A DNA stretch of 63,331 bases, the filler included, from an uncultured Myxococcia bacterium (GTDB lineage: Bacteria > CAZTWC01): the NCBI GenBank assembly GCA_964617105.1. It is 3 parts of 3 records of this genome, joined end to end, with 100 filler letters (N's around TTAATTAATTAA, not from the genome) between each part and the next. Parts side by side here need not be neighbours in the genome. Positions count along the whole stretch, not along the records: positions 1 to 21,451 come from CAZTWC010000032.1; 2 more parts are not named here. The stretch is one strand, 5' to 3'. Shown piece by piece: positions 3,568 to 17,082 of this stretch (position 1 is its first letter; the number at the start of each line of letters is the position of its first letter). A program made the translations under genes and the position numbers. The notes under the pieces were generated by a model, which made no database searches, was not told the origin of the DNA, and saw nothing but the letters and a program-made list of their open reading frames with translations.

Positions 3568-3806
3568 GGTAGTACTCCTTTAAGAAAACGACAGTTGAAA
3601 TTGTCTAAAGTTATTAAGAACGAAAAGAATTCCCGAGATTTCAATACCGGGTTGACAAATAATTTTTTATTTTATTACGTTTTATTACTTTGATCAAGAC
3701 TCTTGAAATAAATAGAAAAATTTTATATCCTAAACTCCAATTAATAATTATGGGTAAAGGTCATTGAGCGCTCAATACTGATTTGCCCCCAAATGGAGGA
3801 AGAGTT

Positions 3807-5348
3807 ATGAACAGCCATCTTAAAAACTGCTTGGTATTTATAGTGATATTATTTTTCTCATTGGCTCTTGGGGCCCAGGAGAAAAAGAGTGAGGCTACCA
3901 GTGAAAAGGGGAAACCCGCGGTAGAGAAAGGGGAAAAGGAAGAAGGGAAAAAAGGAACTTTGGAACCAAAACCTGCTGAAACTGAGACCCCGGCAGCCGA
4001 ACCAGCTCCGGCCAAAGAGGAGGAAAAAGATGAGGCGGCCCCGCCAACTGGGGGAGAATCCCAGGCTGGCGAAACCATTGAGATGCTCAACGGCGATACC
4101 ATCCGAGGCCGCATCCTGAGGTTGGACGATAACTGTCTGGTGGTGGCCAAAACCGCAGCTGATGAAAAAGATATCCGGGCCGGACGCATTAAGGGATTGA
4201 GATTAAGTCTGGATAATGTGCTTTTTGTGGAGTGGCATGGCCGCAGCGATGATTTTACCGCCAAAATAGATAAATATTTGGAAGCCAGCATGGCCGGCAC
4301 CACCTTTTTTCAAGATATGGATTTTGAAGTCAAATTCAAGGCTGGTAAGGTCAAAGACCAGGATGCTACCTATAATGGTAACCTGGGAGTAAAGTATATC
4401 CATCGAAATGACACTGAAAAGTTTGGTTATGAATTTATGGGTAGCGTTTTCCTCAATTCCGATTCTAACCGCGCCGATAATAAGTTTTCTTTCTCCCTCC
4501 AGGATGAATACAACTCCGATGACTCCTTTGCTACTGGTGTCTACAAGCGCTATCTCAAAGGTGATACGTTTGTTTTTGGCGGCGGAAAATTCAAGTTTAA
4601 TTACCAACTTCATGACCGCCCCGGCTCAAGAGCTCTGGGTGGAGCCGGTTATGGTCGTATCTACAACATTGCTTCCAAGAAAAAGATGGAGGCGGTGGAG
4701 ACCTTTATGATGGATGCCGGGCTGCTCAAACGAAAGTTTAGTATAAAGATGAAAAGAGCCCTCACCGCCATTTTCGACACCTCAGCCAATCCTCAGCAAT
4801 TGACCCGGCGCATCGCCTCCCTGTTGAAGCGCTTTAACATGTTGGTGGATGGACGGGAGTTGGGTATAGATCAGGCCTTTGAGATAGTCCAGATTATCGA
4901 GGACTCTTTTAAAGAGCGTTTGGATGGTTTGGAGTTGAGAGGCTATACTGAGTTGGACCTAATAACCGCTAATGAGGGAGAGAGCAACCAGATGAGTATG
5001 TCGGGTATGATGCGCTGGTATAAACCGATTAGTGATAAAATCCAGTTTGTCCAGTTAAACACCTTTTATATGGGCTTTACCGGGGCCAAAGTAATCTCCT
5101 TCGCATCTAACAACGAACTGACCTATCTGGTTAACGAAAAATTCGCCGTTGGGGTAACCGATCAGTTTGGTCTGAATTTGAAACCCACCACCGATCTGAC
5201 TAACAGTTTGCAGGGTGTTGCCACCTATTTTGTTTCCGAGCAAATCGACCTGAAGGGGGAGGCTAGCGCCAACTTGAGCATTCCGGAGATAGGACCCACC
5301 GGTTGGGACTTAACGATGATGGTTCATTTTGTGTATGACTTTATTTAG
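3807..5348 (+). CDS. Exported outer-membrane beta-barrel protein with acidic Pro/Glu-rich N-terminal linker
   Basis: Signal peptide (ALG-A), low-complexity linker, IEMLNGDTIRGRI small domain, amphipathic strands, aromatic C-terminus FVYDFI. ATG 3807 has SD GGAGG. Confidence 0.6.
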   Translation: MNSHLKNCLVFIVILFFSLALGAQEKKSEATSEKGKPAVEKGEKEEGKKGTLEPKPAETETPAAEPAPAKEEEKDEAAPPTGGESQAGETIEMLNGDTIRGRILRLDDNCLVVAKTAADEKDIRAGRIKGLRLSLDNVLFVEWHGRSDDFTAKIDKYLEASMAGTTFFQDMDFEVKFKAGKVKDQDATYNGNLGVKYIHRNDTEKFGYEFMGSVFLNSDSNRADNKFSFSLQDEYNSDDSFATGVYKRYLKGDTFVFGGGKFKFNYQLHDRPGSRALGGAGYGRIYNIASKKKMEAVETFMMDAGLLKRKFSIKMKRALTAIFDTSANPQQLTRRIASLLKRFNMLVDGRELGIDQAFEIVQIIEDSFKERLDGLELRGYTELDLITANEGESNQMSMSGMMRWYKPISDKIQFVQLNTFYMGFTGAKVISFASNNELTYLVNEKFAVGVTDQFGLNLKPTTDLTNSLQGVATYFVSEQIDLKGEASANLSIPEIGPTGWDLTMMVHFVYDFI

Positions 5349-5350
5349 TT

Positions 5351-6352
5351 ATGGAGAGATTAATACCAGTCAATGGGCATAAATTATTGATTATGCTGTT
5401 TATAGCCATGCTGGTGCTCTTAGTACCATTAAAAGGTATAGCGGACACTGCCGGCCAGCAGCCGGCAGTGGTTGGTTTGGCGGTGGCTCCCTTTAAAAAT
5501 ATCAGCCAAAATCCCAATTATGACTGGTTGAGTGCCGCTTTTAGCGAAACTATTAGCACCCGCCTGAGCCAAGTAAAAAGTTTTAATTTGGTGGAGCGCA
5601 GTCAAATGAGAAAACTGCTCAAAGAGATGGAGATATCTCAATTGGGCCTTACTGAAAAGAGCATTGAGCCGGGAAAATGGGCGGGAGTGGATATCCTGAT
5701 GCTGGGTAGTTTTTTGGTGATGGGGCAGGGCGAAGGGGCCAAAATGCAGGTTAACACCCGCCTGGTGGATGTACAGAAAGCGATAATCCTCAAGGGCAGC
5801 GGTCTTTCTCAGCAGGCAGAGTTCAAAACTCTGTTTTCTCTTCAGGATAAAATTATTTTCCAAACCAGTAGTGCCCTGGCCCGTACCACCGATCCTGCTA
5901 CCAAAAAAATACTGGCCTGTCACGAAACCGAATCTTTGGCTGCATACCAGTTTTATCACCTGGCCTTACAGGAGCAAAATCCACATAAAAAGGTTATCCT
6001 GTATAAAAAAGCGCTTAGTTTTGATTCCAATTATGCCCTGGCCTATCTGAATCTGGCCTCTGCTCTCTACCTGTCATCATACCACCGGGTGAGTGACATT
6101 GAGGTGGAGAAAAACGCAGTCAAAGCCCTTTCGATTCAGCCCAACCTTAGTGAAGGCCACTTACTTCTGGGCTCCTACTATGAAAGAATAGCCAATAAGG
6201 GCAAAGGAAAAAAACAGCGAAAACAGGCCCGGAAAAAAGCGATTTTTCACTACCAGCAATATATTGTCCAAACCCAGGGCGAAAAAAGAAAATCCCAGTT
6301 ATACAAGATAAAAAGAGCCAAGCGTCGTCTCACCCGCTTACAGAGGAAATGA
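5351..6352 (+). CDS. CsgG/FlgO/TolB-N-like domain plus TPR repeats, exported
   Basis: LAVAPFKN..YDWLS, LVERSQMRKLLKE, VNTRLVDV, followed by TPRs (YKKALSFDSNYALAYLNLA). Confidence 0.75.
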   Translation: MERLIPVNGHKLLIMLFIAMLVLLVPLKGIADTAGQQPAVVGLAVAPFKNISQNPNYDWLSAAFSETISTRLSQVKSFNLVERSQMRKLLKEMEISQLGLTEKSIEPGKWAGVDILMLGSFLVMGQGEGAKMQVNTRLVDVQKAIILKGSGLSQQAEFKTLFSLQDKIIFQTSSALARTTDPATKKILACHETESLAAYQFYHLALQEQNPHKKVILYKKALSFDSNYALAYLNLASALYLSSYHRVSDIEVEKNAVKALSIQPNLSEGHLLLGSYYERIANKGKGKKQRKQARKKAIFHYQQYIVQTQGEKRKSQLYKIKRAKRRLTRLQRK

Positions 6353-6366
6353 CAGAGAGGTGTTAT

Positions 6367-6789
6367 ATGTCCCATAAATGTGATGCTTTAGTGATTAATT
6401 GTATGGATTTCAGGCTTCAAAAAAGTCTGGTAAATAATTTGCCGGCTGCCGCCAATATCCTTTCTTTTGATTTGGTTTCTCAGGCCGGGGCGGTAAAACC
6501 GCTTTTAGTCCCGGAAACCAGGCAAGTTATCCTGGACCAGGTGGAACTTTCAAAGCAGTTGCATCAGATCAAAAAGGTGATCCTGGTCAATCACACCGAT
6601 TGCGGCGCCTATGGAGGCAGCAACGCTTTTTCCAGTTTCGAAGAGGAGATTAGGGTGTTGACAGAAGACCTCAAGCGGGCGGCAGATTTAGTAAAAGAGC
6701 ACCAACCCTCATTAGAAGTGGTAAACTATTTGGCAGTTTTGTACAGTAAAGACGAGAAAAATTGGCAGATAGAGTTTAAGATAGTTTAG
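6367..6789 (+). CDS. Small beta-class carbonic anhydrase-like protein
   Basis: Zn ligand motifs CMDFR and HTDCGAY. ATG 6367 follows SD AGAGG (alternative start 6349). Confidence 0.8.
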   Translation: MSHKCDALVINCMDFRLQKSLVNNLPAAANILSFDLVSQAGAVKPLLVPETRQVILDQVELSKQLHQIKKVILVNHTDCGAYGGSNAFSSFEEEIRVLTEDLKRAADLVKEHQPSLEVVNYLAVLYSKDEKNWQIEFKIV

Positions 6790-6884: not shown

Positions 6885-6910
6885 TGTCCAAACTTTGCCT
6901 GCCAGGCGTC
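6885..6910 (+). promoter_or_regulatory. Putative autoregulated ECF promoter
   Basis: TGTCCA-N16-CGTC about 30 nt upstream of the ECF gene. CGT/CGTC is the typical ECF -10 element. Confidence 0.5.
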
Positions 6911-6939
6911 TTTATAACTAGAACCAAAAGGATATTTTT

Positions 6940-7407
6940 TTGCAGAGCGATCTAAATAGTATTTACCGGCTGCATATCACCATGGTTCGCAAGGCTGCCG
7001 AAAGAATTTTAAAAAATTCTTCAGCAGCGGAAGATGTGGCCCAGGAAACTTTTATTAAATATATTCAATATACCAGGAAGCAGAAAAAAATTGACCATAT
7101 CGCCGGATTTTTATTTCGGGTGGCCACCAACCTGGCTCTGAACCAGTTGCGAAACAGTAAAAGACGAGATTTGCTTTTGCAACAAATGGTTAGCGAAAGT
7201 ATTGATGTTACCGTTTCCATTGAGGACCAGATAGCGTTACGCAAGGTGTTGTCCCAGGTGGGCGAATTGGAGGCTCAAATAGCCGCCTATTATTATATTC
7301 ACGGTATGAACCAGCGAGAGATAAGTGATTTGCTCTCTTTGCATCGCCGCAAAGTCAGCCGGCTTTTAGAAGAATTTAGAACCCGGGCGCGTAAATTGTT
7401 GGGTTAA
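6940..7407 (+). CDS. ECF sigma factor
   Basis: Region 2 AAEDVAQETFIK...FLFRVATNLALNQLR; region 4 GMNQREISDLL.LHRRKVSR. Confidence 0.92.
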   Translation: MQSDLNSIYRLHITMVRKAAERILKNSSAAEDVAQETFIKYIQYTRKQKKIDHIAGFLFRVATNLALNQLRNSKRRDLLLQQMVSESIDVTVSIEDQIALRKVLSQVGELEAQIAAYYYIHGMNQREISDLLSLHRRKVSRLLEEFRTRARKLLG

Positions 7408-7442
7408 ATTTAAATCGGTTTGAATTTATAAGGTAGTCAAAG

Positions 7443-8192
7443 ATGACAAATGAGATTTTTAGGCAGGAAAAAGCGGACCTGCAGTGTCTTTCTTATTGGA
7501 CGATATCGCAATTGGCTCTGGGAGCGCTAAAAGAGAGGTCTATACAATCTGCGCAGGAGCATTTAGACCAGTGTCCCAGGTGCAGGGATTTGTTGCGGGC
7601 CGAACAGGAACAGGTAGATGCGGCTCGCTACCAGAGACTGCCCGAACAACTGATGGCAGAAATAGAAAAAGATGAACAGAGAACCAAAGCGGGTTGGCGG
7701 CTATTTTTTGGCAGCCGGCTATTCTTTCCAGGCCTGACCGTCTCTTTGACGGTTTGTCTAGTGTTAGTTATTTCTTTCATAGTTAAGGATATGGGGGTAG
7801 ATGTCAACCAACCTTTGACCAGGATCAAGGGAAGTGAGGGGTTGACCGTATCAGTATTAAGGGGAGAGCAATTAACTCATAACCGGGTCCCTTTGGAGCA
7901 GGTCTCCGCCCTTTCGGTAGGCGACAGACTGCGCCTCCATTACCAGGGGCGCCAGGACAATTGGTTGGAGATATACGGGCAGGAGAAGGGGATATGGGAG
8001 TTATATTATCAAGGAAAAGTTCCGCTGGATGGTTGGTTGCCTATGGGCATTAAAATTACCGGCGAGGAGATTACTAAAATAAAGGTTCTTGAATGTTCTG
8101 GTCAATCTGGGCTTCAATCTGAGCAAATAATTGACAAATCAAAGTGCAGCCAGCAGGTTTTTAATTTAAGACTATCAAATTCAAGTCAATAA
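7443..8192 (+). CDS. Membrane anti-sigma factor (zf-HC2/ZAS), one TM helix, periplasmic domain
   Basis: HLDQCPRC zinc motif; TM LFFPGLTVSLTVCLVLVISFIV; then LTRIKG and a small beta domain (LSVGDRLRLHY). Confidence 0.85.
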   Translation: MTNEIFRQEKADLQCLSYWTISQLALGALKERSIQSAQEHLDQCPRCRDLLRAEQEQVDAARYQRLPEQLMAEIEKDEQRTKAGWRLFFGSRLFFPGLTVSLTVCLVLVISFIVKDMGVDVNQPLTRIKGSEGLTVSVLRGEQLTHNRVPLEQVSALSVGDRLRLHYQGRQDNWLEIYGQEKGIWELYYQGKVPLDGWLPMGIKITGEEITKIKVLECSGQSGLQSEQIIDKSKCSQQVFNLRLSNSSQ

Positions 8193-8271
8193 TCACTCTG
8201 TCCTCACCTGGACACAGCCCTTCAGAGGCTGCGGCAGGCAAGAGGTTAATATTTATTTTTTTTTGGGTTTT

Positions 8272-9840
8272 ATGAAATACCGGGTATTTAAAAATTTTAT
8301 CTTTCTTCTGGTGTTACTAGCAGGTTTGTCTGAGGCGGCGGCTGACTCTCGGTATGCCTTGCTGGTAGGAGCCAACCGGGGAAGTAGTCCCGGCCAGGTG
8401 CCACTTCTCTACGCTGGTCAGGATGCAGAGAGGATGGCCGATGTCTTAATCAACCTGGGAGGTTTTTCTATTGAAAATATCATTGTCAGTAAAAATCCCA
8501 GCGCCAATAAATTAAGAGGTCTGCTAGCCAAATTGAACGCCCGGATCCGCTCCGAGTCAAGTGCTGTTGGCGACAGTTTTCTGTTTGTTTATTATTCGGG
8601 GCATGCAGATAGCATCTCGCTCCACCTGGGTGGCACCTTGCTTCCCTGGGAGGAGTTGCGTAATTGGACCGCCAGTTCTCACGCCCGGGCGCGGCTTCTG
8701 GTGATTGATGCCTGCCAATCGGGCCATGCCACCCGTGTAAAAGGTACCCGCCTGGAACAGCCTTTTGCCCTACCTACCAAAAATATCGCTATCCCCGAGG
8801 GCTTTGCCATACTTTCCTCTGCTACCGCCGGTGAAAACTCTCTGGAGTCGGATCAAATTAGAGGTTCCTTTTTTACTCACCATTTTATTGCTGGCTTAAA
8901 AGGGGTGGCTGATGTGGATGGCGACCGGGTAGTAACCTTAAACGAGGCTTACCGGTATACTGCCAAGCGCACCGTGGCCAGCACTATCTCTACCTTGTCC
9001 GGTGTGCAGCACCCAACCTATTTATATGAACTAAAGGGGAAAAAAGACTTGATTTTAACTCGTCTTCATACCAGGGAAGAGTTGAGTGCTCTTAGCCTGT
9101 CAAAGAGAGGGCAGTATTTTTTTTACCGCAACAGTTTAGAGGGCGTTTTAGAGTTGGAGGCCAATATTGCTGCGGAGAACCGGACCGTCTATATTCCGGC
9201 GGGTAAATATTTTGTCCGTCATCGAACTCTGGAGCGTTTTTATGAAGGTAAAATTGAGTTGCAGGCCAATAGTACCACGGAGTTAAATACCGATAATTTA
9301 AACAGAATCGAGTATGCACAGTTGGTTCGCAAGGGAGGAGTTGCTACCAGAGTTTATTCCCTATCTCTATGGGGAGGAATGGCGCCTTCTTTGCTGGAAG
9401 GGTACCGCTCTATTTGGAACCAGGCCCTGGGATTCTCAATAAACACCCGGCTGTTGACCTTGGAGATATTGGGCCGCTTTTCCTATCATCAAACTGAAAA
9501 TTTGGGTTTGAAAGGGATGCTCAAGGAATACGGCTTATTAGCCGGCATCAGGAAGGTTTTTGATTTTAACCATTTTTCCTTATCCACTGGAGCCCGGGTA
9601 GGAGCCAGTTATCTGGATCAAAAATTTGAGTCCAATGGCGATAATCCCGGTAGATGGTCACTGGTTCCGGTTTTGGAAGTGATGTTACGGGGAGAGCGCC
9701 AATTGCCGGCCGGCTTTTTCCTGGGGCTGGAAGGATCAGCCCGGGTTATAAATTTACGGGTGGAGGGAGATCAGCCGGATTCGGAACGTAAAACACCACT
9801 CCAGTTTATTGGTGCAGTAGGAATTGGAAAATATTGGTAA
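8272..9840 (+). CDS. Exported caspase-family (peptidase C14) protease with C-terminal outer-membrane beta-barrel
   Basis: Signal peptide (SEAAA-DS), RYALLVGAN, catalytic His in YYSGHAD (8602-8604) and Cys in IDACQSG (8713-8715), SFFTH, DVDGDRVVTLNEAY. C-terminal amphipathic strands end GIGKYW. Confidence 0.9.
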   Translation: MKYRVFKNFIFLLVLLAGLSEAAADSRYALLVGANRGSSPGQVPLLYAGQDAERMADVLINLGGFSIENIIVSKNPSANKLRGLLAKLNARIRSESSAVGDSFLFVYYSGHADSISLHLGGTLLPWEELRNWTASSHARARLLVIDACQSGHATRVKGTRLEQPFALPTKNIAIPEGFAILSSATAGENSLESDQIRGSFFTHHFIAGLKGVADVDGDRVVTLNEAYRYTAKRTVASTISTLSGVQHPTYLYELKGKKDLILTRLHTREELSALSLSKRGQYFFYRNSLEGVLELEANIAAENRTVYIPAGKYFVRHRTLERFYEGKIELQANSTTELNTDNLNRIEYAQLVRKGGVATRVYSLSLWGGMAPSLLEGYRSIWNQALGFSINTRLLTLEILGRFSYHQTENLGLKGMLKEYGLLAGIRKVFDFNHFSLSTGARVGASYLDQKFESNGDNPGRWSLVPVLEVMLRGERQLPAGFFLGLEGSARVINLRVEGDQPDSERKTPLQFIGAVGIGKYW

Positions 9841-9939
9841 TTCTTGAAGGTTAAATAAAACATGGTTAAATTATACATTGTAATTTTGCGACAATTATAT
9901 TAAAATAAATGTCTTTGATTTTTGAGGGGGCTTTTTTTA

Positions 9940-11421
9940 ATGACGCTGATTTTGCATTTTCGGCCAGCAGCAATGTATCTATTGCTGCTATTACATATAA
10001 CTCTTTTCGTTAGTTGTGGTCTTCCCCTGAAAGAGGGAAATTTTAAGGGAGAGCCACAGTGTCTGGCCGGTCAGGAGACTCATTGCCTGTGCCCTGACGG
10101 CTCTAATTCCCGGAAATCCTGCACTGCCAACTCCACCTGGGGTCTATGTATTTGCCGCAGCAATTTGTCACCAATAGACTTGAAAAAAGTGGATTTGCTC
10201 CCAAGTCTAAAAAAATGCCGGGAGCACAGCGACTGCCCTGCCGGTCAAAATTGCCAAAATAACCTCTGTAAATTTCAGGTGTGTAAAAACCATCAGAGTT
10301 GTCCCTGGGGACAGGTTTGCTCGGTGGAAGGGGAGTTGGGAATATGCCTGGAGCCAGGCTGCCAGAAAGATAATGACTGTGGCGGCGATAATATCTGCCG
10401 GGAAGGCAAATGTTTAACCGCCCAACAACTTTTAAAGAGCGAAACCTTTATTAGATTATCTTCAAATCATGTAAGCACTTGCGGAATCAGGGGTGATAAC
10501 TACCTGTGGTGCTGGCAGGAAGATACCTCCCTTAAGTATTTGAATCAGGACCAGATCTTCACCACCATTCAGATGGATAACGACAAATGGCTGGATATCT
10601 CCATGGGGTACAATCATACCTGTGGTATCAAAAGTGACCGCACCCTATGGTGCTGGGAAAATAGTAACCTGAGCCAGGAGAGCGGCTTTAGTCAAAAAGA
10701 GGTCCCGGTTCAATTGGGGGACAACAGGTGGAAAGTTATCGATTCAGGTAAAAATCACACTTGCGGCATTAGATCAGACAGCAGCCTTTGGTGCTGGGAG
10801 GGTAAAAACCTGAGTCATAGTCACAATTTATGGCCCATAAAAATTGGCCAAGGGCAATGGAAATTTGTTTCCTCCGGGGAAGAAAAAAGTTGCGCCATTC
10901 ATAAGGACAATATTCTTTGGTGCTGGAAGAATGGAGAAAACCAATTACCCAAATCTTTTGATGGAAACCAATGGCGGCAGGTAAGCGCCGGAAAAAATCA
11001 TTTATGCGGCCTTAAAAAGGATAATAGCTTATGGTGTTGGGGAGATAACCGGTATGGTCAGGTAGGCGATGGGACCATGGAAAATGGGCAGGTTCGGGAA
11101 ACGCCAGTTTTTATTGGCGGGTATGATTGGCGGGAGATCAGTGCCGGAGAGTATCACACTTGTGGCCTTAAAAAGGATAACCGCCTTTGGTGCTGGGGAT
11201 TGAACCGGTATGGTCAAATCGGAGACGGCACCAAGTGGTCCAGGCCAAAGCCAATTAATGTTAATCAGCAGCAATGGAAACAGATTACTTCGGGTGGGAA
11301 CCACACCTGTGGTATCAGGAGTGACAACACTATATGGTGTTGGGGCTACAATTTTTACAGTAGATATGGTCAGGGGATCCAGTTGGATATTAAACAACCA
11401 TCTGGTAATAATGGAGATTAA
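9940..11421 (+). CDS. Cys-rich lipoprotein with RCC1/BLIP-II beta-propeller repeats
   Basis: FVSC lipobox, C..xSDCP.GQ.C Cys repeats, and about 7 repeats of the type SAG..HTCG.K.D..LWCWG.N.YGQ.GDG. Start uncertain (9922/9940). Confidence 0.85.
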   Translation: MTLILHFRPAAMYLLLLLHITLFVSCGLPLKEGNFKGEPQCLAGQETHCLCPDGSNSRKSCTANSTWGLCICRSNLSPIDLKKVDLLPSLKKCREHSDCPAGQNCQNNLCKFQVCKNHQSCPWGQVCSVEGELGICLEPGCQKDNDCGGDNICREGKCLTAQQLLKSETFIRLSSNHVSTCGIRGDNYLWCWQEDTSLKYLNQDQIFTTIQMDNDKWLDISMGYNHTCGIKSDRTLWCWENSNLSQESGFSQKEVPVQLGDNRWKVIDSGKNHTCGIRSDSSLWCWEGKNLSHSHNLWPIKIGQGQWKFVSSGEEKSCAIHKDNILWCWKNGENQLPKSFDGNQWRQVSAGKNHLCGLKKDNSLWCWGDNRYGQVGDGTMENGQVRETPVFIGGYDWREISAGEYHTCGLKKDNRLWCWGLNRYGQIGDGTKWSRPKPINVNQQQWKQITSGGNHTCGIRSDNTIWCWGYNFYSRYGQGIQLDIKQPSGNNGD

Positions 11422-12847: not shown

Positions 12848-12909
12848 TACCGATAAGTAAGGGAAGAAGAGAATATTTTTAGCGGAAAATTCAGATATTG
12901 GAGGGATTC

Positions 12910-15900
12910 ATGAGAGAATTTCGCAGAGAAAAGTTACCTCAATTAATTATTTCACTACTGTTGATGGCAGCCCTGTTGACCCCGGTGGTCTTGAGCGGCT
13001 GTACCGGCGACATGGGTGACATCAACCGTACCAGTCCCGACCGGGTGGAAAAATCTATTTTCCAGGGGTTGTGGTTCTATCGTCCCACCACTATTTATGC
13101 CCCCTATTCGGTTGGTTTCACCTTTGTGGGCGAACAGCCTCTAATAGGGTTGAGCCCCAAGATTATCTGGGATATCCAGGAGAAATACCTGATAGGGTAC
13201 AATATCTACTCCCTGGTGAAAAATGCTGAAGAGCAATATCAGCGCCGCCGTCTCCGCCGGCCTGACGGCAGTTGGGTGGAGATCTATGTTGGCAGCCCGG
13301 TGGCTATTTTCCCTATCAAGAAACACTTTGATGTTATCCGCGCCTTCAACACCACCTCTGGGGAACAGTCCAACGTTATTACTGAAGACAGCAGTTTGAA
13401 ACCCTGGTATCAGCGTAAATATATGCGGGTCGACTGGTCGGTTAACAAGGCTAAACCTCTGCGCATTATGATGATGTCGGCTGAACTGGATGGAACGGCC
13501 AATTATATTCGGGCAAATGAAGACCAAAATATGAGTAAGCCTATCTTTAGCAAAGACTATATTGAGTTTACCGGCTGGATCGGAATCAATCCCAAGGGAA
13601 ATCGCTGCTCCTACTATTATCACCACGATGCCACCTGTTCCTCAGCCCGCTGGCAGGTGCGCCACTCCTTTAAAAAGGCAGGGCCAACTTTTCAAGGCCA
13701 GTTTTGTGAACCAGTCCAGGGTGATGGCCGCTGTGATTACCTGGGTTTTAAAAATTATCGTTGTGTAGCGGACCAAGAGGGCTCGGAGAGTGGAGAATGT
13801 TTTCTGGAGTGTGAGAATGACCTGGGTTGCGGCCAGAGTTACCAGTGTGTGCAGGGAATGTGTGAAAACACTTACGAAGCCTGGAACTACGACCCCTATT
13901 TACAGGATAAGTACGGTTATTTTATTAGCGAGCGGAAAACCTATCACCGCCAGCGGGGTATGTCCGAATCCGGTAAAAAATATTTTATCAACCGCTGGAA
14001 TCTATGGACCAAGACCAAAAACCCTGATGGAACCAAACTTACTTTTCGGCAACGGATAGAGGGCGGGTTTTATAAACCGGTATTATTTTACAACAGTGTC
14101 AATATGCCCCAATACCTCTGGGAAACCTCCTATTTGGTAGGCCAAGACTGGAACAAAGTTTTTAAGGACACGGTCGCCTGGATGATATACCTGGAAGAGA
14201 AGGAGGGACTTTTAAAAGATGTGATGCTCAACGACAAGTTCAAAATTCTTTCAGATAAGCAACTGGCCGACTTCCAAAAAGAGGTGGATGATATCAAAAA
14301 CCGTCTGCCCGCTTTCTTTGCAGTTTGCCCCAATCGATGGCAGGATGTGCTGGACGCCAAAGGCCAAGCACCTGCCTATTGGCAGAATACTATCTGTCGG
14401 AATTTGCCTGACAAGGATAAAGTTAAAAAAGTGGGTGATATCCGCTACAGTTTGATCAACTGGGTGGGCTCTCCAATGTATTCCGGACCACTGGGATACG
14501 GTCCCTCTGACAAGGACCCGGAAACCGGCGAGATTTTTACCGGCACCGCCAATATTTACGGCGCCTCCCTGGAAGCCTACGCTTCTTACGCCATGGATAT
14601 CATCAATTTGTTAAATAACAACATTAAGCCGGAAGATTTAATATCTGGCAAGGTAACCAGGGATGATGTGGCTACCAGCAAGGGGAAGAGCACCAGCCCC
14701 TTAACTGCTACCGAAGTGGAAGATCATAAAAACCCCATGGCAGGTATTGACCACGATTTGGCCATGCGTTTGAGAAATTCAACCGCCCTTACTCAGCAAA
14801 AAGAGAAGGCCGCCTGTATCCATAATCATTTCAACCCCAGTGAGCACTTCTCTAACCCAAAAATTGCCGAACTGCACAAAATGATGCGTAATCCGCTAAA
14901 TGAGATGCGCCAGTTGCTTATGGCCGCTCCCCAGGTGCGCCCCGATGCCAAGGCCCGGGGTCTTGAACCTATTAAAGGCACTCCAATTGAAGATCGCTTG
15001 ATCAACGAAGAGGTGCGTTTTATGTTCGGCCAGCAGGAGGATAGAGGCAAAATGCTGGATGAACAGGAGCGGGCCAATTTGTCACCCGCCCGTTGGGCCC
15101 ATTTTGGTGAACTGGATCGCTATCGTAAGTGGCAAAACACGCTTATGGCAAACAATGTCTACCACATCACCTTCACCGATGACACGGTTTATGGCCTGGC
15201 CAAGGAGATGCAGGAGAAGCAGAAGAAAAATGGTTGGTCCTCGGATCAGGTGCGTGAAGAAGTGATAAAAAGAGTCTATATGGGAGTAACTATACACGAA
15301 ATTGGTCATACCGTCGGACTGCGCCACAATTTTGGCGCTAGTGCCGATGCCTATAACTTTTTTGATAAATGGTACGATATCAAGGGAAATTTTACTAATC
15401 CCGATGCCCCGGTTACTGAGCAACAAAAACGGCTTAAAATCTACGAATATCAATACTCCAGCATTATGGATTACGGCGCCCGTTTTAACAGCGATTTTAA
15501 TGGAGCCGGAAAATATGACCGAGCGGTCATCAAGTTTGGTTACGGCGGATTGGTGGAAGTGTTTGGCAAGAGAACCGCTTTCCCCGTGGTCACTTGGGCT
15601 CGCAATACCATGAACATGAGATCCGCTGGTATTGTGTACCATATCTTTAGCTATATGCAAATATTCGGCGGGAACGAGGGCTGGAAGAACTTTTTGGATA
15701 AAAACCGACTTACCCTGCGTTGGAATGATGTCCAGGCTCACCAGCAGAAAATGTACTCCCAATATTTTAAAGATCCGGAAATTATTAACGACCGGATAGC
15801 TACTTTAAAAAACAAGGATGCTGATTCTATCAATGATGCCTATGGTGCCTGGGAGATGATCGAGGTTCCTTTCCGTTACTGTGGCGACGAATTCCGGGGG

Positions 15901-17082
15901 AATTTGGGATGCAACGTCTGGGACCAGGGATTTGATGCTTCCTCAATTGTGGATACCGCTCTTAATAGCCTGGATAAGTACTATATTTTTGATGCCTTTA
16001 TGCGCGACCGCTATAGTTTTGGTAAATTCGGTTCCTATTCCTACTACTACTATCGTCTGGGCCGCTATTATGACTTTTTGCGCAGCGCCAACCTTTATGC
16101 CTCTTTGTACAAAAACTATATTTCTCAGATAATGCCCCAGGGACAAGCCCAGAATTGGGAATATGACAAGATGCAGGGCGGCATGCTAATGAGAGGTTTG
16201 CAGAAGTCGGTCAACTACTTTTCTAAAGCGATGGCTTCACCTTCACCGGGGGGGCACTTTCTTAACCAGAATGTTTTTGAACCAATTACCCCCTTTACCT
16301 CTACCGCCGGCCAGCAGACCGTGGATATTCCCCTGGGCATCGGCCGTTATCCCTTCACCCGTTTTATGGACGACACCTATTTCTATGCATATCGGGCCAA
16401 GTGGATCGGCAGTTTTTGGGACAAGCTCTATGCTTTGATGACCCTGACCAATTCCCGGGCTTATTTTGCCGGTGGTGAGTTTTCTTCTGAGTTAGCCGGA
16501 ATCACCGGTGGAGCCGCAGTGGGAGTATTTACCGTCTATCCCAAACTGGTTACCAATATTCTCGGCGGTTTGATTACCGACACCTATCAGATTTTTGCCG
16601 GCACCTGGGATGCTCAAAAGCAGAACTACACATCTCTTGATATGTTCAGTCCCTCTTTTATGACCGGTAAACCGGTAAAACCCTCTATAACTAATATGAC
16701 GTTAAAACTCTATGCCGGTCTTTACGGTCTGGCCAATTTGGCCGCCGGGTATGATCAGAGTTTTATTGATTCCATGGCGCTTTATATAAAAGGAAATAGT
16801 CATGAATTTGAGAATTGGAATCCTGATCCTGCCCAGTTTAAAAATCCTATGGAGTTCAAGGATCCTTTTACCGGTAAAATTTATGTAGCACCACATCACA
16901 GGCACGATGGCCGAATTGCCATCTCCTATACTATGCTGCAAAAAGCCCAGAGTTTGGTCAACATGTACAACAGTGCCGGTACCTTTACCCAGAAAACTGA
17001 ATATCGCAGCCAACTGAGAGAGATTTTGGCTTTACTGGATTATTACCATTACCTGTACAAGTTTTACGGCTATGTAAACTGA
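12910..17082 (+). CDS. Giant lipoprotein zinc metalloprotease (metzincin; EcxA/DUF4953-like), paralogue 1
   Basis: Lipobox VLSGC, HEIGHTVGLRH, Met-turn SSIMDY, DPETGEI motif and a Cys-rich insert. ATG 12910 follows GGAGGG. Confidence 0.88.
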   Translation: MREFRREKLPQLIISLLLMAALLTPVVLSGCTGDMGDINRTSPDRVEKSIFQGLWFYRPTTIYAPYSVGFTFVGEQPLIGLSPKIIWDIQEKYLIGYNIYSLVKNAEEQYQRRRLRRPDGSWVEIYVGSPVAIFPIKKHFDVIRAFNTTSGEQSNVITEDSSLKPWYQRKYMRVDWSVNKAKPLRIMMMSAELDGTANYIRANEDQNMSKPIFSKDYIEFTGWIGINPKGNRCSYYYHHDATCSSARWQVRHSFKKAGPTFQGQFCEPVQGDGRCDYLGFKNYRCVADQEGSESGECFLECENDLGCGQSYQCVQGMCENTYEAWNYDPYLQDKYGYFISERKTYHRQRGMSESGKKYFINRWNLWTKTKNPDGTKLTFRQRIEGGFYKPVLFYNSVNMPQYLWETSYLVGQDWNKVFKDTVAWMIYLEEKEGLLKDVMLNDKFKILSDKQLADFQKEVDDIKNRLPAFFAVCPNRWQDVLDAKGQAPAYWQNTICRNLPDKDKVKKVGDIRYSLINWVGSPMYSGPLGYGPSDKDPETGEIFTGTANIYGASLEAYASYAMDIINLLNNNIKPEDLISGKVTRDDVATSKGKSTSPLTATEVEDHKNPMAGIDHDLAMRLRNSTALTQQKEKAACIHNHFNPSEHFSNPKIAELHKMMRNPLNEMRQLLMAAPQVRPDAKARGLEPIKGTPIEDRLINEEVRFMFGQQEDRGKMLDEQERANLSPARWAHFGELDRYRKWQNTLMANNVYHITFTDDTVYGLAKEMQEKQKKNGWSSDQVREEVIKRVYMGVTIHEIGHTVGLRHNFGASADAYNFFDKWYDIKGNFTNPDAPVTEQQKRLKIYEYQYSSIMDYGARFNSDFNGAGKYDRAVIKFGYGGLVEVFGKRTAFPVVTWARNTMNMRSAGIVYHIFSYMQIFGGNEGWKNFLDKNRLTLRWNDVQAHQQKMYSQYFKDPEIINDRIATLKNKDADSINDAYGAWEMIEVPFRYCGDEFRGNLGCNVWDQGFDASSIVDTALNSLDKYYIFDAFMRDRYSFGKFGSYSYYYYRLGRYYDFLRSANLYASLYKNYISQIMPQGQAQNWEYDKMQGGMLMRGLQKSVNYFSKAMASPSPGGHFLNQNVFEPITPFTSTAGQQTVDIPLGIGRYPFTRFMDDTYFYAYRAKWIGSFWDKLYALMTLTNSRAYFAGGEFSSELAGITGGAAVGVFTVYPKLVTNILGGLITDTYQIFAGTWDAQKQNYTSLDMFSPSFMTGKPVKPSITNMTLKLYAGLYGLANLAAGYDQSFIDSMALYIKGNSHEFENWNPDPAQFKNPMEFKDPFTGKIYVAPHHRHDGRIAISYTMLQKAQSLVNMYNSAGTFTQKTEYRSQLREILALLDYYHYLYKFYGYVN

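Follow-up and report, generated by a model that had tools for sequence, protein, structure and literature searches.

In the RpoE-RseA-DegS/RseP and SigW-RsiW-PrsW pathways, a site-1 protease cuts a single-pass anti-sigma factor in its extracytoplasmic juxtamembrane region, a site-2 protease then acts on the short stub that remains, and the gene of the sigma factor is autoregulated. The site-1 protease of these pathways is an inner-membrane serine or metallo enzyme that is not encoded in the operon. Sigma factors with extracytoplasmic function (ECF) form, to our knowledge, the largest group of signalling sigma factors in bacteria, with the activating step unknown for most groups, and we know of a substrate or a job for almost none of the numerous bacterial caspase homologues. 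Here we analyse a three-gene cassette from an uncultured Myxococcia bacterium (GenBank assembly GCA_964617105.1) that encodes an ECF sigma factor, a single-pass anti-sigma factor and an exported caspase-like protease with a predicted outer membrane (OM) anchor. It lies in a stretch of 63,331 nucleotides, filler included, that joins three parts of three records and that we refer to at its full length as the window. The anti-sigma factor and the caspase have a K-G motif in common, and in a sister clade K-G is replaced by R-G at the caspase loop, at the junction before its membrane anchor and in the anti-sigma linker together, an observation that is new here. With moderate confidence we propose that the caspase switches on the sigma factor by cutting the anti-sigma factor at K-G after its own self-cleavage and release. 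Relative to the RpoE and SigW pathways the cassette adds a candidate self-processing motif common to the substrate, as well as the OM anchor, and it is likely a variant of regulated anti-sigma proteolysis, itself new, in which a separate OM-anchored caspase would act as the site-1 protease.

Caspase homologues have been placed beside sigma factors before. The available text of Asplund-Samuelsson et al. (2012, PMC3501461) reports that four of the five metacaspases of M. xanthus DK1622 lie in operons with sigma-70-family factors, and notes the same operon structure in Anaeromyxobacter, Haliangium, Sorangium, Ralstonia and Fibrobacter. These operons are of the same kind as the cassette; that text gives the gene order and discusses cell death, and mentions no anti-sigma factor, barrel, motif or mechanism. 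A first-pass annotation made from the sequence of the window had known of no mechanistic description of such trios. We likewise found none in the literature covered, supplementary tables lying outside that coverage, but the operon type itself had already been printed in the accessible portion of PMC3501461.

In the M. xanthus DdvS/DdvA system, as far as the available text goes, an ECF sigma factor is paired with a single-pass zinc-binding anti-sigma factor bearing a periplasmic caspase-fold domain, and that domain is proposed to cut the flexible linker beside the membrane helix before RseP (PMC11506125). In DdvA the protease-like part is a TPR-CHAT domain fused to the anti-sigma factor and is described there as acting in trans inside a dimer, with CBASS/CRISPR genes under the control of the system, whereas the cassette encodes a separate C14 protein with its own OM anchor and a motif common to the substrate; cleavage is a proposal in both systems. 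The type III-E protease Csx29, also TPR-CHAT, cuts the linker of the sigma-binding protein Csx30 and releases an RpoE-bound fragment, by which an ECF-type sigma factor is freed, and one group of Csx30 C-terminal domains is DUF4384 according to the text available (bioRxiv 10.1101/2022.08.17.504292), the same family to which the DUF4384-like periplasmic domain of the cassette anti-sigma factor is related. As portrayed in that text, craspase differs from the cassette in being cytoplasmic, RNA-guided and CRISPR-linked, in using CHAT and not C14, and in its cut sites. The three cassette proteins gave no CHAT or TPR Pfam match, in contrast to the CHAT-type sigma regulators DdvA and Csx29. Kaur et al. 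(2021, PMC8195603) describe EACC2-caspase systems in which a caspase is genomically coupled to an ECF sigma factor, and propose that activation proceeds by autopeptidase activity; in the accessible part of that paper these are conflict systems with EACC2/TPR (DUF1822) partners, whereas the cassette caspase instead bears a signal peptide and a barrel. The available text of PMC8999054 connects ECF54 with CHAT and further peptidases.

The cassette consists of three co-oriented open reading frames (ORFs) on the plus strand with gaps of 35 and 70 nt between them (Table 1). The ORF calls and family scores agree with the initial assignment of an ECF sigma factor, a zinc-binding (ZAS-type) anti-sigma factor and a C14 caspase in one orientation. 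Regions 2 and 4 and the small size identify the first product as a predicted ECF (group 4) sigma-70 factor: TIGR02937 matches residues 5-153 at 64.9 bits (cut-off 42.9) and PF04542 (Sigma70_r2) matches at E 8.6e-12, PF04545 being weak on its own at 16.2 bits against a cut-off of 24.1. The gene of the putative cognate anti-sigma factor adjoins the sigma gene on its 3' side.

This arrangement is widespread. Database relatives of the full-length caspase-barrel protein number 454 at E up to 0.001 among 8000 scored candidates, the named ones coming mostly from myxobacteria, and a scan of one genome per species gave at least 585 confirmed relatives, of which 80 loci were kept. A sigma gene lies directly 5' of the caspase gene in 71 of the 80, which bears out the earlier statement that similar trios occur in myxobacteria; four of the nine loci without an upstream sigma gene have less than 800 nt of upstream sequence. 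In each of the 71, an ORF of about 250 aa that encodes a single hydrophobic helix separates the sigma gene from the caspase gene, and HxxxCxxC is found in 65 of 72 such ORFs when the window is included. Proteins related to the six that flank the cassette in the window were absent from beside it in the 80 loci, save for three weak matches to the RCC1-repeat protein. The neighbours of the window are thus not conserved at other loci, and the module is the trio alone.

The central observation concerns a short motif. Translation puts TRIKG of the anti-sigma factor, TRVKG of the caspase loop and VRKGG of the caspase junction at exactly the positions first assigned to them. Across every stop-to-stop frame of the window with 80 aa or more (172 frames), TR.KG has two occurrences and no others, one in the anti-sigma factor and one in the caspase. 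The 72 anti-sigma sequences are diverse, with a mean column identity of 26% and only two invariant columns, G130 and C218. Within the motif, G130 is present in 72/72, K129 in 70/72 and R127 in 63/72, and the complete RxKG in 61/72. When the set is restricted to 53 anti-sigma factors with less than 60% mutual identity, RxKG is found in the periplasmic part of 43, and residue shuffling gives 1.7 on average and never more than 7. The caspase loop is conserved too (n = 81: T157 in 79, R158 in 77, V159 in 71, and K160 and G161 in all 81), as is the junction (n = 81: R356 in 81, K357 in 72 with Arg in 8 others, G358 in 71). Co-conservation of RxKG in the two partners had been put forward as a check on the first-pass reading, and it holds, with the Lys in 70/72 and the Gly in 72/72 anti-sigma factors and K-G in 81/81 caspases. 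The motif T-R-[IV]-K-G proposed as shared is indeed found in both partners, but its invariant core is K-G, and the preceding Arg is frequent but not coupled. At one locus, L163, a rare RDKG occurs in both partners, a single case.

Further evidence comes from paralogous cassettes. An anti-sigma profile search of five myxobacterial genomes returned at least nine full-length paralogues in single genomes, some of which adjoin far more distant caspases with a different code. Sister-clade caspases (35 sequences) have Arg at Cys+9, for example 'DACYSYFLAYSRG', and the linker of the sister-clade anti-sigma factors reads [FW]T[AS]RG. Among 30 sister loci, a same-strand anti-sigma gene is present in 25, every one with Arg before Gly, and xxxRG occurs 193-206 residues past the Cys of the caspase in 29/30, the equivalent K357 of the window being at Cys+206. 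The states of the caspase loop, anti-sigma factor and junction, in that order, are KKK in 71, RRR in 26 and KKR in 15 of 118 non-duplicate pairs, the rarer states being KRR in 2 and KMK, KRK, KK- and RR- in 1 each. States were scored by the rule 'first [KR]G after the helix', and two of the K/R discordances are artefacts of it (L085, RSKA; L098, GIKG). A tree of 147 caspase domains (FastTree, motif columns kept in) places the minimum number of K-to-R changes at Cys+9 at one, and the replacement of K-G by R-G at three sites together in a monophyletic sister clade is one evolutionary switch. With a profile of five sister-clade caspases, 179 of the 301 Myxococcota genomes sampled gave matches at E up to 1e-20, a tally whose weakest matches reach the main-clade cross-hit level (the window caspase matches the sister profile at 4.4e-18) and which includes the unpublished genome G201, although the loci read do not include G201.

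Inspection by eye showed a barrel pattern to be absent from the sister caspases of L118, L119, L122 and L124-L148, which have one or two long hydrophobic C-terminal stretches rich in Gly, Ala and Val; that of L123 looks barrel-like. The C-terminal sequences suggest that the anchor of the R-G clade caspases may be a different membrane element. At L120, L149, L151 and L153, a caspase with an HSRG loop is divergently oriented from the sigma/anti-sigma pair, and the anti-sigma motif is W[QT]AR[SG]. The anti-sigma factors of L115 (WGTRGG) and L116 (WQSRGG) are of the type found in this divergent-caspase subclade, and no caspase was found within the fetched flank.

The third protein of the cassette is assigned as a peptidase C14, with predicted activity, by a PF00656 (Peptidase_C14) match at 47.8 bits against a cut-off of 21.4 and by an intact catalytic dyad. 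Both dyad residues named at the outset, the His at H114 and the Cys at C151, are present, and each is found in 81/81 caspase relatives. NF047832 (NCBIfam caspase, EACC1-associated type) matches at 68.1 bits, under its cut-off of 140. The N-terminus is signal-peptide-like over approximately residues 1-27, and an ATG at 8272 gives the 522-aa form that is present in the protein database. An AlphaFold2 model based on a 41-sequence alignment has a mean predicted local distance difference test (pLDDT) score of 84.8 and consists of the caspase domain, a beta-sandwich, a short helix at residues 351-356 and an eight-strand barrel. Foldseek matches the barrel to OmpA, OmpW, NspA and Ail at target-normalised template-modelling (TM) scores of 0.67-0.71, and the enzyme domain to procaspase-7, caspase-8 and MALT1. 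The last residue is Trp in the window caspase, F/W/Y in 49/81 relatives and Leu in 21/81. Searching the caspase protein with Pfam barrel families gave no match. By its eight modelled strands and its structural neighbours, the C-terminal domain is a predicted small eight-strand OM barrel of the OmpA/OmpW/OmpX-Ail/NspA type, in agreement with the fused OM beta-barrel originally described.

Several features of the enzyme bear on what it might cut and where it might reside. A profile search of solved structures with the caspase family returned metacaspases only, and the alignment places 'LRYAxxD54' on metacaspase 'LRGCVND' and 'D149-A-C151-x-S-G' on 'DSCHSG' of metacaspase-4. D54 is conserved in 80/81 and D149 in 81/81 relatives, and we take the metacaspase Asp residues that match them to form the Arg/Lys pocket. 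With these metacaspase-like acidic pocket residues, the caspase is expected to cleave on the C-terminal side of Lys or Arg. T157 is the sixth residue past C151 and K160-G161 falls at Cys+9/+10, and the loop of residues 154-166 that bears TRVKG has pLDDT below 50 and comes directly after the strand that ends in C151. A small barrel with an even number of strands should place both of its ends in the periplasm, and the indel-rich, variable loops of the modelled barrel, the first, third and fourth, are on the side opposite the N-terminus. Together these features weakly favour a periplasm-facing enzyme, and the model suggests that the caspase domain probably faces the periplasm while held at the outer membrane.

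The cytoplasmic helical domain of the anti-sigma factor contains H40-x3-C44-x2-C47, each of these residues being at least 90% conserved over the 72 sequences, and this N-terminal HxxxCxxC in a helical domain classifies the protein as a predicted zinc-binding, ZAS-type anti-sigma factor. Pfam zf-HC2 scores 19.4 bits on the window protein, below the cut-off of 22.2, and matches 43/72 relatives at E up to 0.01. A single hydrophobic membrane helix is seen at about residues 96-116, and with HxxxCxxC it accords with the one-helix ZAS protein of the initial description. The predicted structure (mean pLDDT 83.3) has helices at residues 18-90, the membrane helix at 101-116, coil at 117-132 and a periplasmic beta-sandwich at 133-244. 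Residues 122-127 have pLDDT below 50 and, given the coil at 117-132, TRIKG lies in a flexible linker just before the first strand. Across the family, 8-27 residues (median 14) separate the Lys of the motif from the membrane helix before it, and the Lys comes at the end of a Pro/Gly/Glu-rich linker, a position compatible with regulated intramembrane proteolysis. DUF4384 (PF14326) gives no match in the window anti-sigma factor at E up to 0.01, matches 43/72 relatives at E up to 0.01, and reaches its cut-off of 27 bits in one of ten relatives inspected (L055, 30 bits); the periplasmic domain is DUF4384-like by family relationship only. The DUF4384 match begins about 24 residues after K-G in L025, which places the K-G motif outside the domain model. 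A search of the Protein Data Bank with the periplasmic domain found no structural match at E up to 0.001, and its fold is a generic beta-sandwich.

Table 1. Positions of the cassette genes, their domains and motifs, and nearby elements, counted along the window.
Feature	Position	Strand	Remarks
Stem-loop	6788..6831	+	directly 3' of the upstream gene's stop; -20.6 kcal/mol, z = -5.08
Candidate autoregulated ECF-type promoter, TGTCCA-N16-CGTCT	6885..6911	+	string match; conserved in nearest loci
ECF (group 4) sigma factor (predicted)	6940..7407	+	155 aa; TTG start, AAGGA 5' of start
Single-pass anti-sigma factor (predicted)	7443..8192	+	249 aa
Anti-sigma H40-x3-C44-x2-C47	7560..7583	+	cytoplasmic helical domain
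Anti-sigma membrane helix	7728..7790	+	residues ~96-116
Anti-sigma T126-R-I-K129-G130, proposed site-1 cleavage motif (K|G)	7818..7832	+	disordered juxtamembrane linker
Anti-sigma periplasmic beta-sandwich	7839..8174	+	residues 133-244
Exported C14 caspase-like protease (predicted)	8263..9840	+	525 aa
Caspase domain	8347..9012	+	residues 29-250
Caspase H114	8602..8604	+	
Caspase C151	8713..8715	+	
Caspase residue 152 (Gln)	8716..8718	+	
Caspase T157-R-V-K160-G161, proposed self-processing site	8731..8745	+	loop after catalytic Cys
EF-hand-like loop D217-x-D-x-D-x-x-V-x-x-x-E228, candidate Ca2+ site	8911..8946	+	within caspase domain
Caspase beta-sandwich	9052..9312	+	residues 264-350
Caspase V355-R-K357-G358-G, proposed release site	9325..9339	+	beta-sandwich/barrel junction
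Eight-strand barrel	9352..9834	+	residues 364-524, AlphaFold2 model

A mechanism that would account for these features begins with the zinc-type single-pass anti-sigma factor keeping the ECF sigma factor at the inner membrane, and with the exported caspase anchored by its barrel in the outer membrane so that the caspase domain and beta-sandwich would project into the periplasm. The loop after the catalytic Cys is the place of caspase maturation, and the enzyme would mature itself by a cut at TRVK|G, nine residues past the Cys. A second cut, at VRK|G in the junction, would free it from the outer membrane. The third cut, by the freed enzyme, would be that of the anti-sigma linker at TRIK|G, which is about 14 residues out from the inner membrane. 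The usual site-2 protease would remove the short membrane stub, and the released sigma factor would drive its own candidate promoter. The first-pass annotation had already inferred an OM-anchored caspase that autoactivates at RxKG and acts as the site-1 protease, and the present evidence supports this in part. An enzyme tethered to the OM would scarcely have access to a cut site this close to the inner membrane, and the junction motif is coupled to the others; VRK-G would therefore be better read as a release site than as an incidental feature. The anti-sigma stub predicted to remain after the cut is 8-27 residues long, within the range known for site-2 proteases. Both TRIKG and TRVKG fall, by prediction, where domains meet, in flexible stretches with pLDDT below 50.

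A number of considerations weigh against this proposal. Each of its cleavage steps is inferred, none having been observed, and a tethered enzyme depends on the proposed release step to reach its substrate. Because the K-to-R event is single, the covariation rests on two clades and not on many switches. The junction Arg in 15 K-clade pairs suggests that the enzyme may not discriminate between Lys and Arg, and such tolerance at the junction offers no explanation for the strictness of Lys in the loop and the linker. For the P3 Arg, two residues ahead of the Lys, K-clade pairs (caspase, anti-sigma factor) are R/R in 70, R/non-R in 13, non-R/R in 3 and non-R/non-R in 5, and on these counts coupling of this Arg between the partners is unconvincing. 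The window caspase has Gln at residue 152, the sole such case, where Arg is found in 78/81 and Lys in 2. In five of the 76 loci with upstream room (L036, L045, L057, L071 and L072) the caspase is present without a sigma/anti-sigma pair, and the conservation of all five residues of the TRVKG loop exceeds the needs of a cleavage site; the loop may also have a structural or lid role. Finally, no caspase is encoded directly downstream of three paralogous anti-sigma factors that have TR[IT]KG, those of L102, L103 and L106 (the downstream sequence covers about 1.5 kb for L103 and L106, and about 0.95 kb, to the contig end, for L102). One possibility is that a caspase acts on these three in trans. 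Their motif is a perfect TR[IT]KG-LEP, and the near relatives L093, L096 and L111 do have a caspase. A complex prediction with caspase residues 25-360 and anti-sigma residues 115-249 (alignments, two runs, no controls) returned 'no answer' with a score of 0.00 and speaks neither for nor against cleavage.

The loci that have a caspase and no sigma/anti-sigma pair, together with the full conservation of the loop beyond what cleavage needs, would suit another arrangement in which the caspase is an output of the sigma regulon, serving envelope remodelling, predation or cell death, while another protease cuts the anti-sigma factor and the TRVKG loop is a structural element or lid. The available text of PMC3501461 ties bacterial caspase homologues, loosely, to cell death. 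We regard this arrangement as unlikely. It fails to explain why the same K-G, with Arg two residues before, is the top conserved periplasmic feature of anti-sigma factors that are only 26% identical, and why the anti-sigma factor has Arg in exactly the clade that has Arg in the caspase loop and junction. Conservation and covariation fit equally well if the shared motif is instead a docking or pseudo-substrate element, the anti-sigma linker filling the caspase active site or loop site uncut and the signal passing by binding and release, with either the anti-sigma factor restraining the caspase from activity or the caspase restraining the anti-sigma factor. A bound lid would suit the full conservation of the five loop residues, and DUF4384 is reported in the accessible text of bioRxiv 10.1101/2022.08.17.504292 to be often fused to protease domains. 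Real catalysis is nevertheless favoured by the dyad and pocket residues, invariant in 81/81; the motif is located in a variable Pro/Gly/Glu-rich linker, a typical position for a site-1 cut, and the OM anchor would keep the enzyme far from that linker unless it is released. Uncut docking seems to us quite improbable.

The K-G cut in both proteins could conceivably also be the work of a third, unlinked periplasmic protease with specificity for basic residues, which would make the caspase a fellow substrate; in favour of this, the anti-sigma factors of L102, L103 and L106 have the motif and no caspase directly downstream. The motif is, however, exactly in the maturation loop of the caspase itself, nine residues from the catalytic Cys, and the acidic residues that form the pocket of Arg/Lys-specific metacaspases are found in this protein as well. 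A third enzyme would in addition need to change its specificity in step with both clades, and no gene for one is conserved in the loci, the window neighbours not being common to other loci. We consider this explanation very improbable, and cleavage of the anti-sigma factor by the caspase itself remains the reading that we prefer.

An important consequence of that reading is that the cassette supplies a candidate substrate, a candidate scissile bond (K129|G130) and a candidate self-processing site together. If caspase cleavage of the anti-sigma factor is true, it would give caspase-fold enzymes a periplasmic signalling role and would bring to four the kinds of protease that make the site-1 cut in anti-sigma factors, and the two-residue code could keep many paralogous pathways apart. 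The cassette is very common, and its orthologues occur in genetically tractable myxobacteria.

The anchor and the enzyme domain further suggest what the cassette might sense. Residues 217-228 of the caspase, which we liken to the EF-hand consensus (DxDxDGxVxxxE), are strongly conserved: D217 in 81/81, D/N/S/T at position 3 in 81/81, D221 in 79/81, V/I224 in 81/81 and E228 in 81/81. G222 is present in 60/81 and is Arg in the window, and the loop appears as DADGDG in the sister clade. By its sequence this loop may be a calcium input to the caspase. More speculatively, the whole could be a trans-envelope caspase cascade in which a zymogen parked at the outer membrane cuts itself twice at K|G, for maturation and for detachment, then traverses the periplasm and cuts the anti-sigma factor at an identical K|G, with the retuning of K-G to R-G insulating paralogous cassettes of a single cell from one another. 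Since the barrel anchor must be assembled and the EF-hand-like loop is invariant, such a module could report OM assembly or integrity, or periplasmic calcium, and unanchored or released enzyme would itself be the signal. We offer this extended scheme as a tentative possibility, less probable than not.

The sigma gene had been credited with its own putative promoter, and the string is present, but the candidate -10 element is GTC[TA] and not CGTC, and the promoter motif is kept only among the nearest orthologues. TGTCCA-N16-CGTC has a single occurrence in the window, which is not significant (at least one match in 24 of 100 shuffles), and the exact string given earlier is found in the window only (1/69 upstream regions). 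In five of the six closest loci (L001, L002, L003, L005 and L023), TGTCC[AG]-N16-NGTC[TA] occupies the same place 5' of the sigma gene; at that position it is absent from L004 and from all remaining loci. The shorter GTCC-N18-GTC[TA] matches six of 69 upstream regions, where shuffling gives 0.64 on average and never more than 3. A promoter motif common to the nearest loci and not to distant ones is as expected of clade-specific ECF promoters. A universal promoter motif across all loci was sought by enumeration of 5-mer/4-mer pairs, which did no better than the reverse-complement control.

The stem-loop of Table 1 stands between the cassette and the genes upstream, and 0/200 shuffles fold equally well. 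It contains a nested inner palindrome, lacks a T-run behind it, and may serve as a tail-less terminator or as a regulatory element. The 81-nt gap 3' of the caspase gene yielded no terminator, so the genes downstream may be co-transcribed with the cassette. At 9922-11421, next on the 3' side, is the gene of a protein that is rich in Cys and has RCC1 repeats (Pfam RCC1_2, E 1.2e-48); 12898-17082 encodes a 1394-aa protein with a HEIGH zinc-protease-like motif. On the 5' side, within 3783-6789, are genes for a secreted 521-aa protein, a CsgG-like lipoprotein with TPR repeats and, directly before the stem-loop, a Pro_CA_2 carbonic-anhydrase-like protein. The secreted 521-aa protein gave no family match and has RIKG at about residue 135 of its ORF. 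The G+C content of the window is about 45%, far lower than that of the named myxobacterial relatives.

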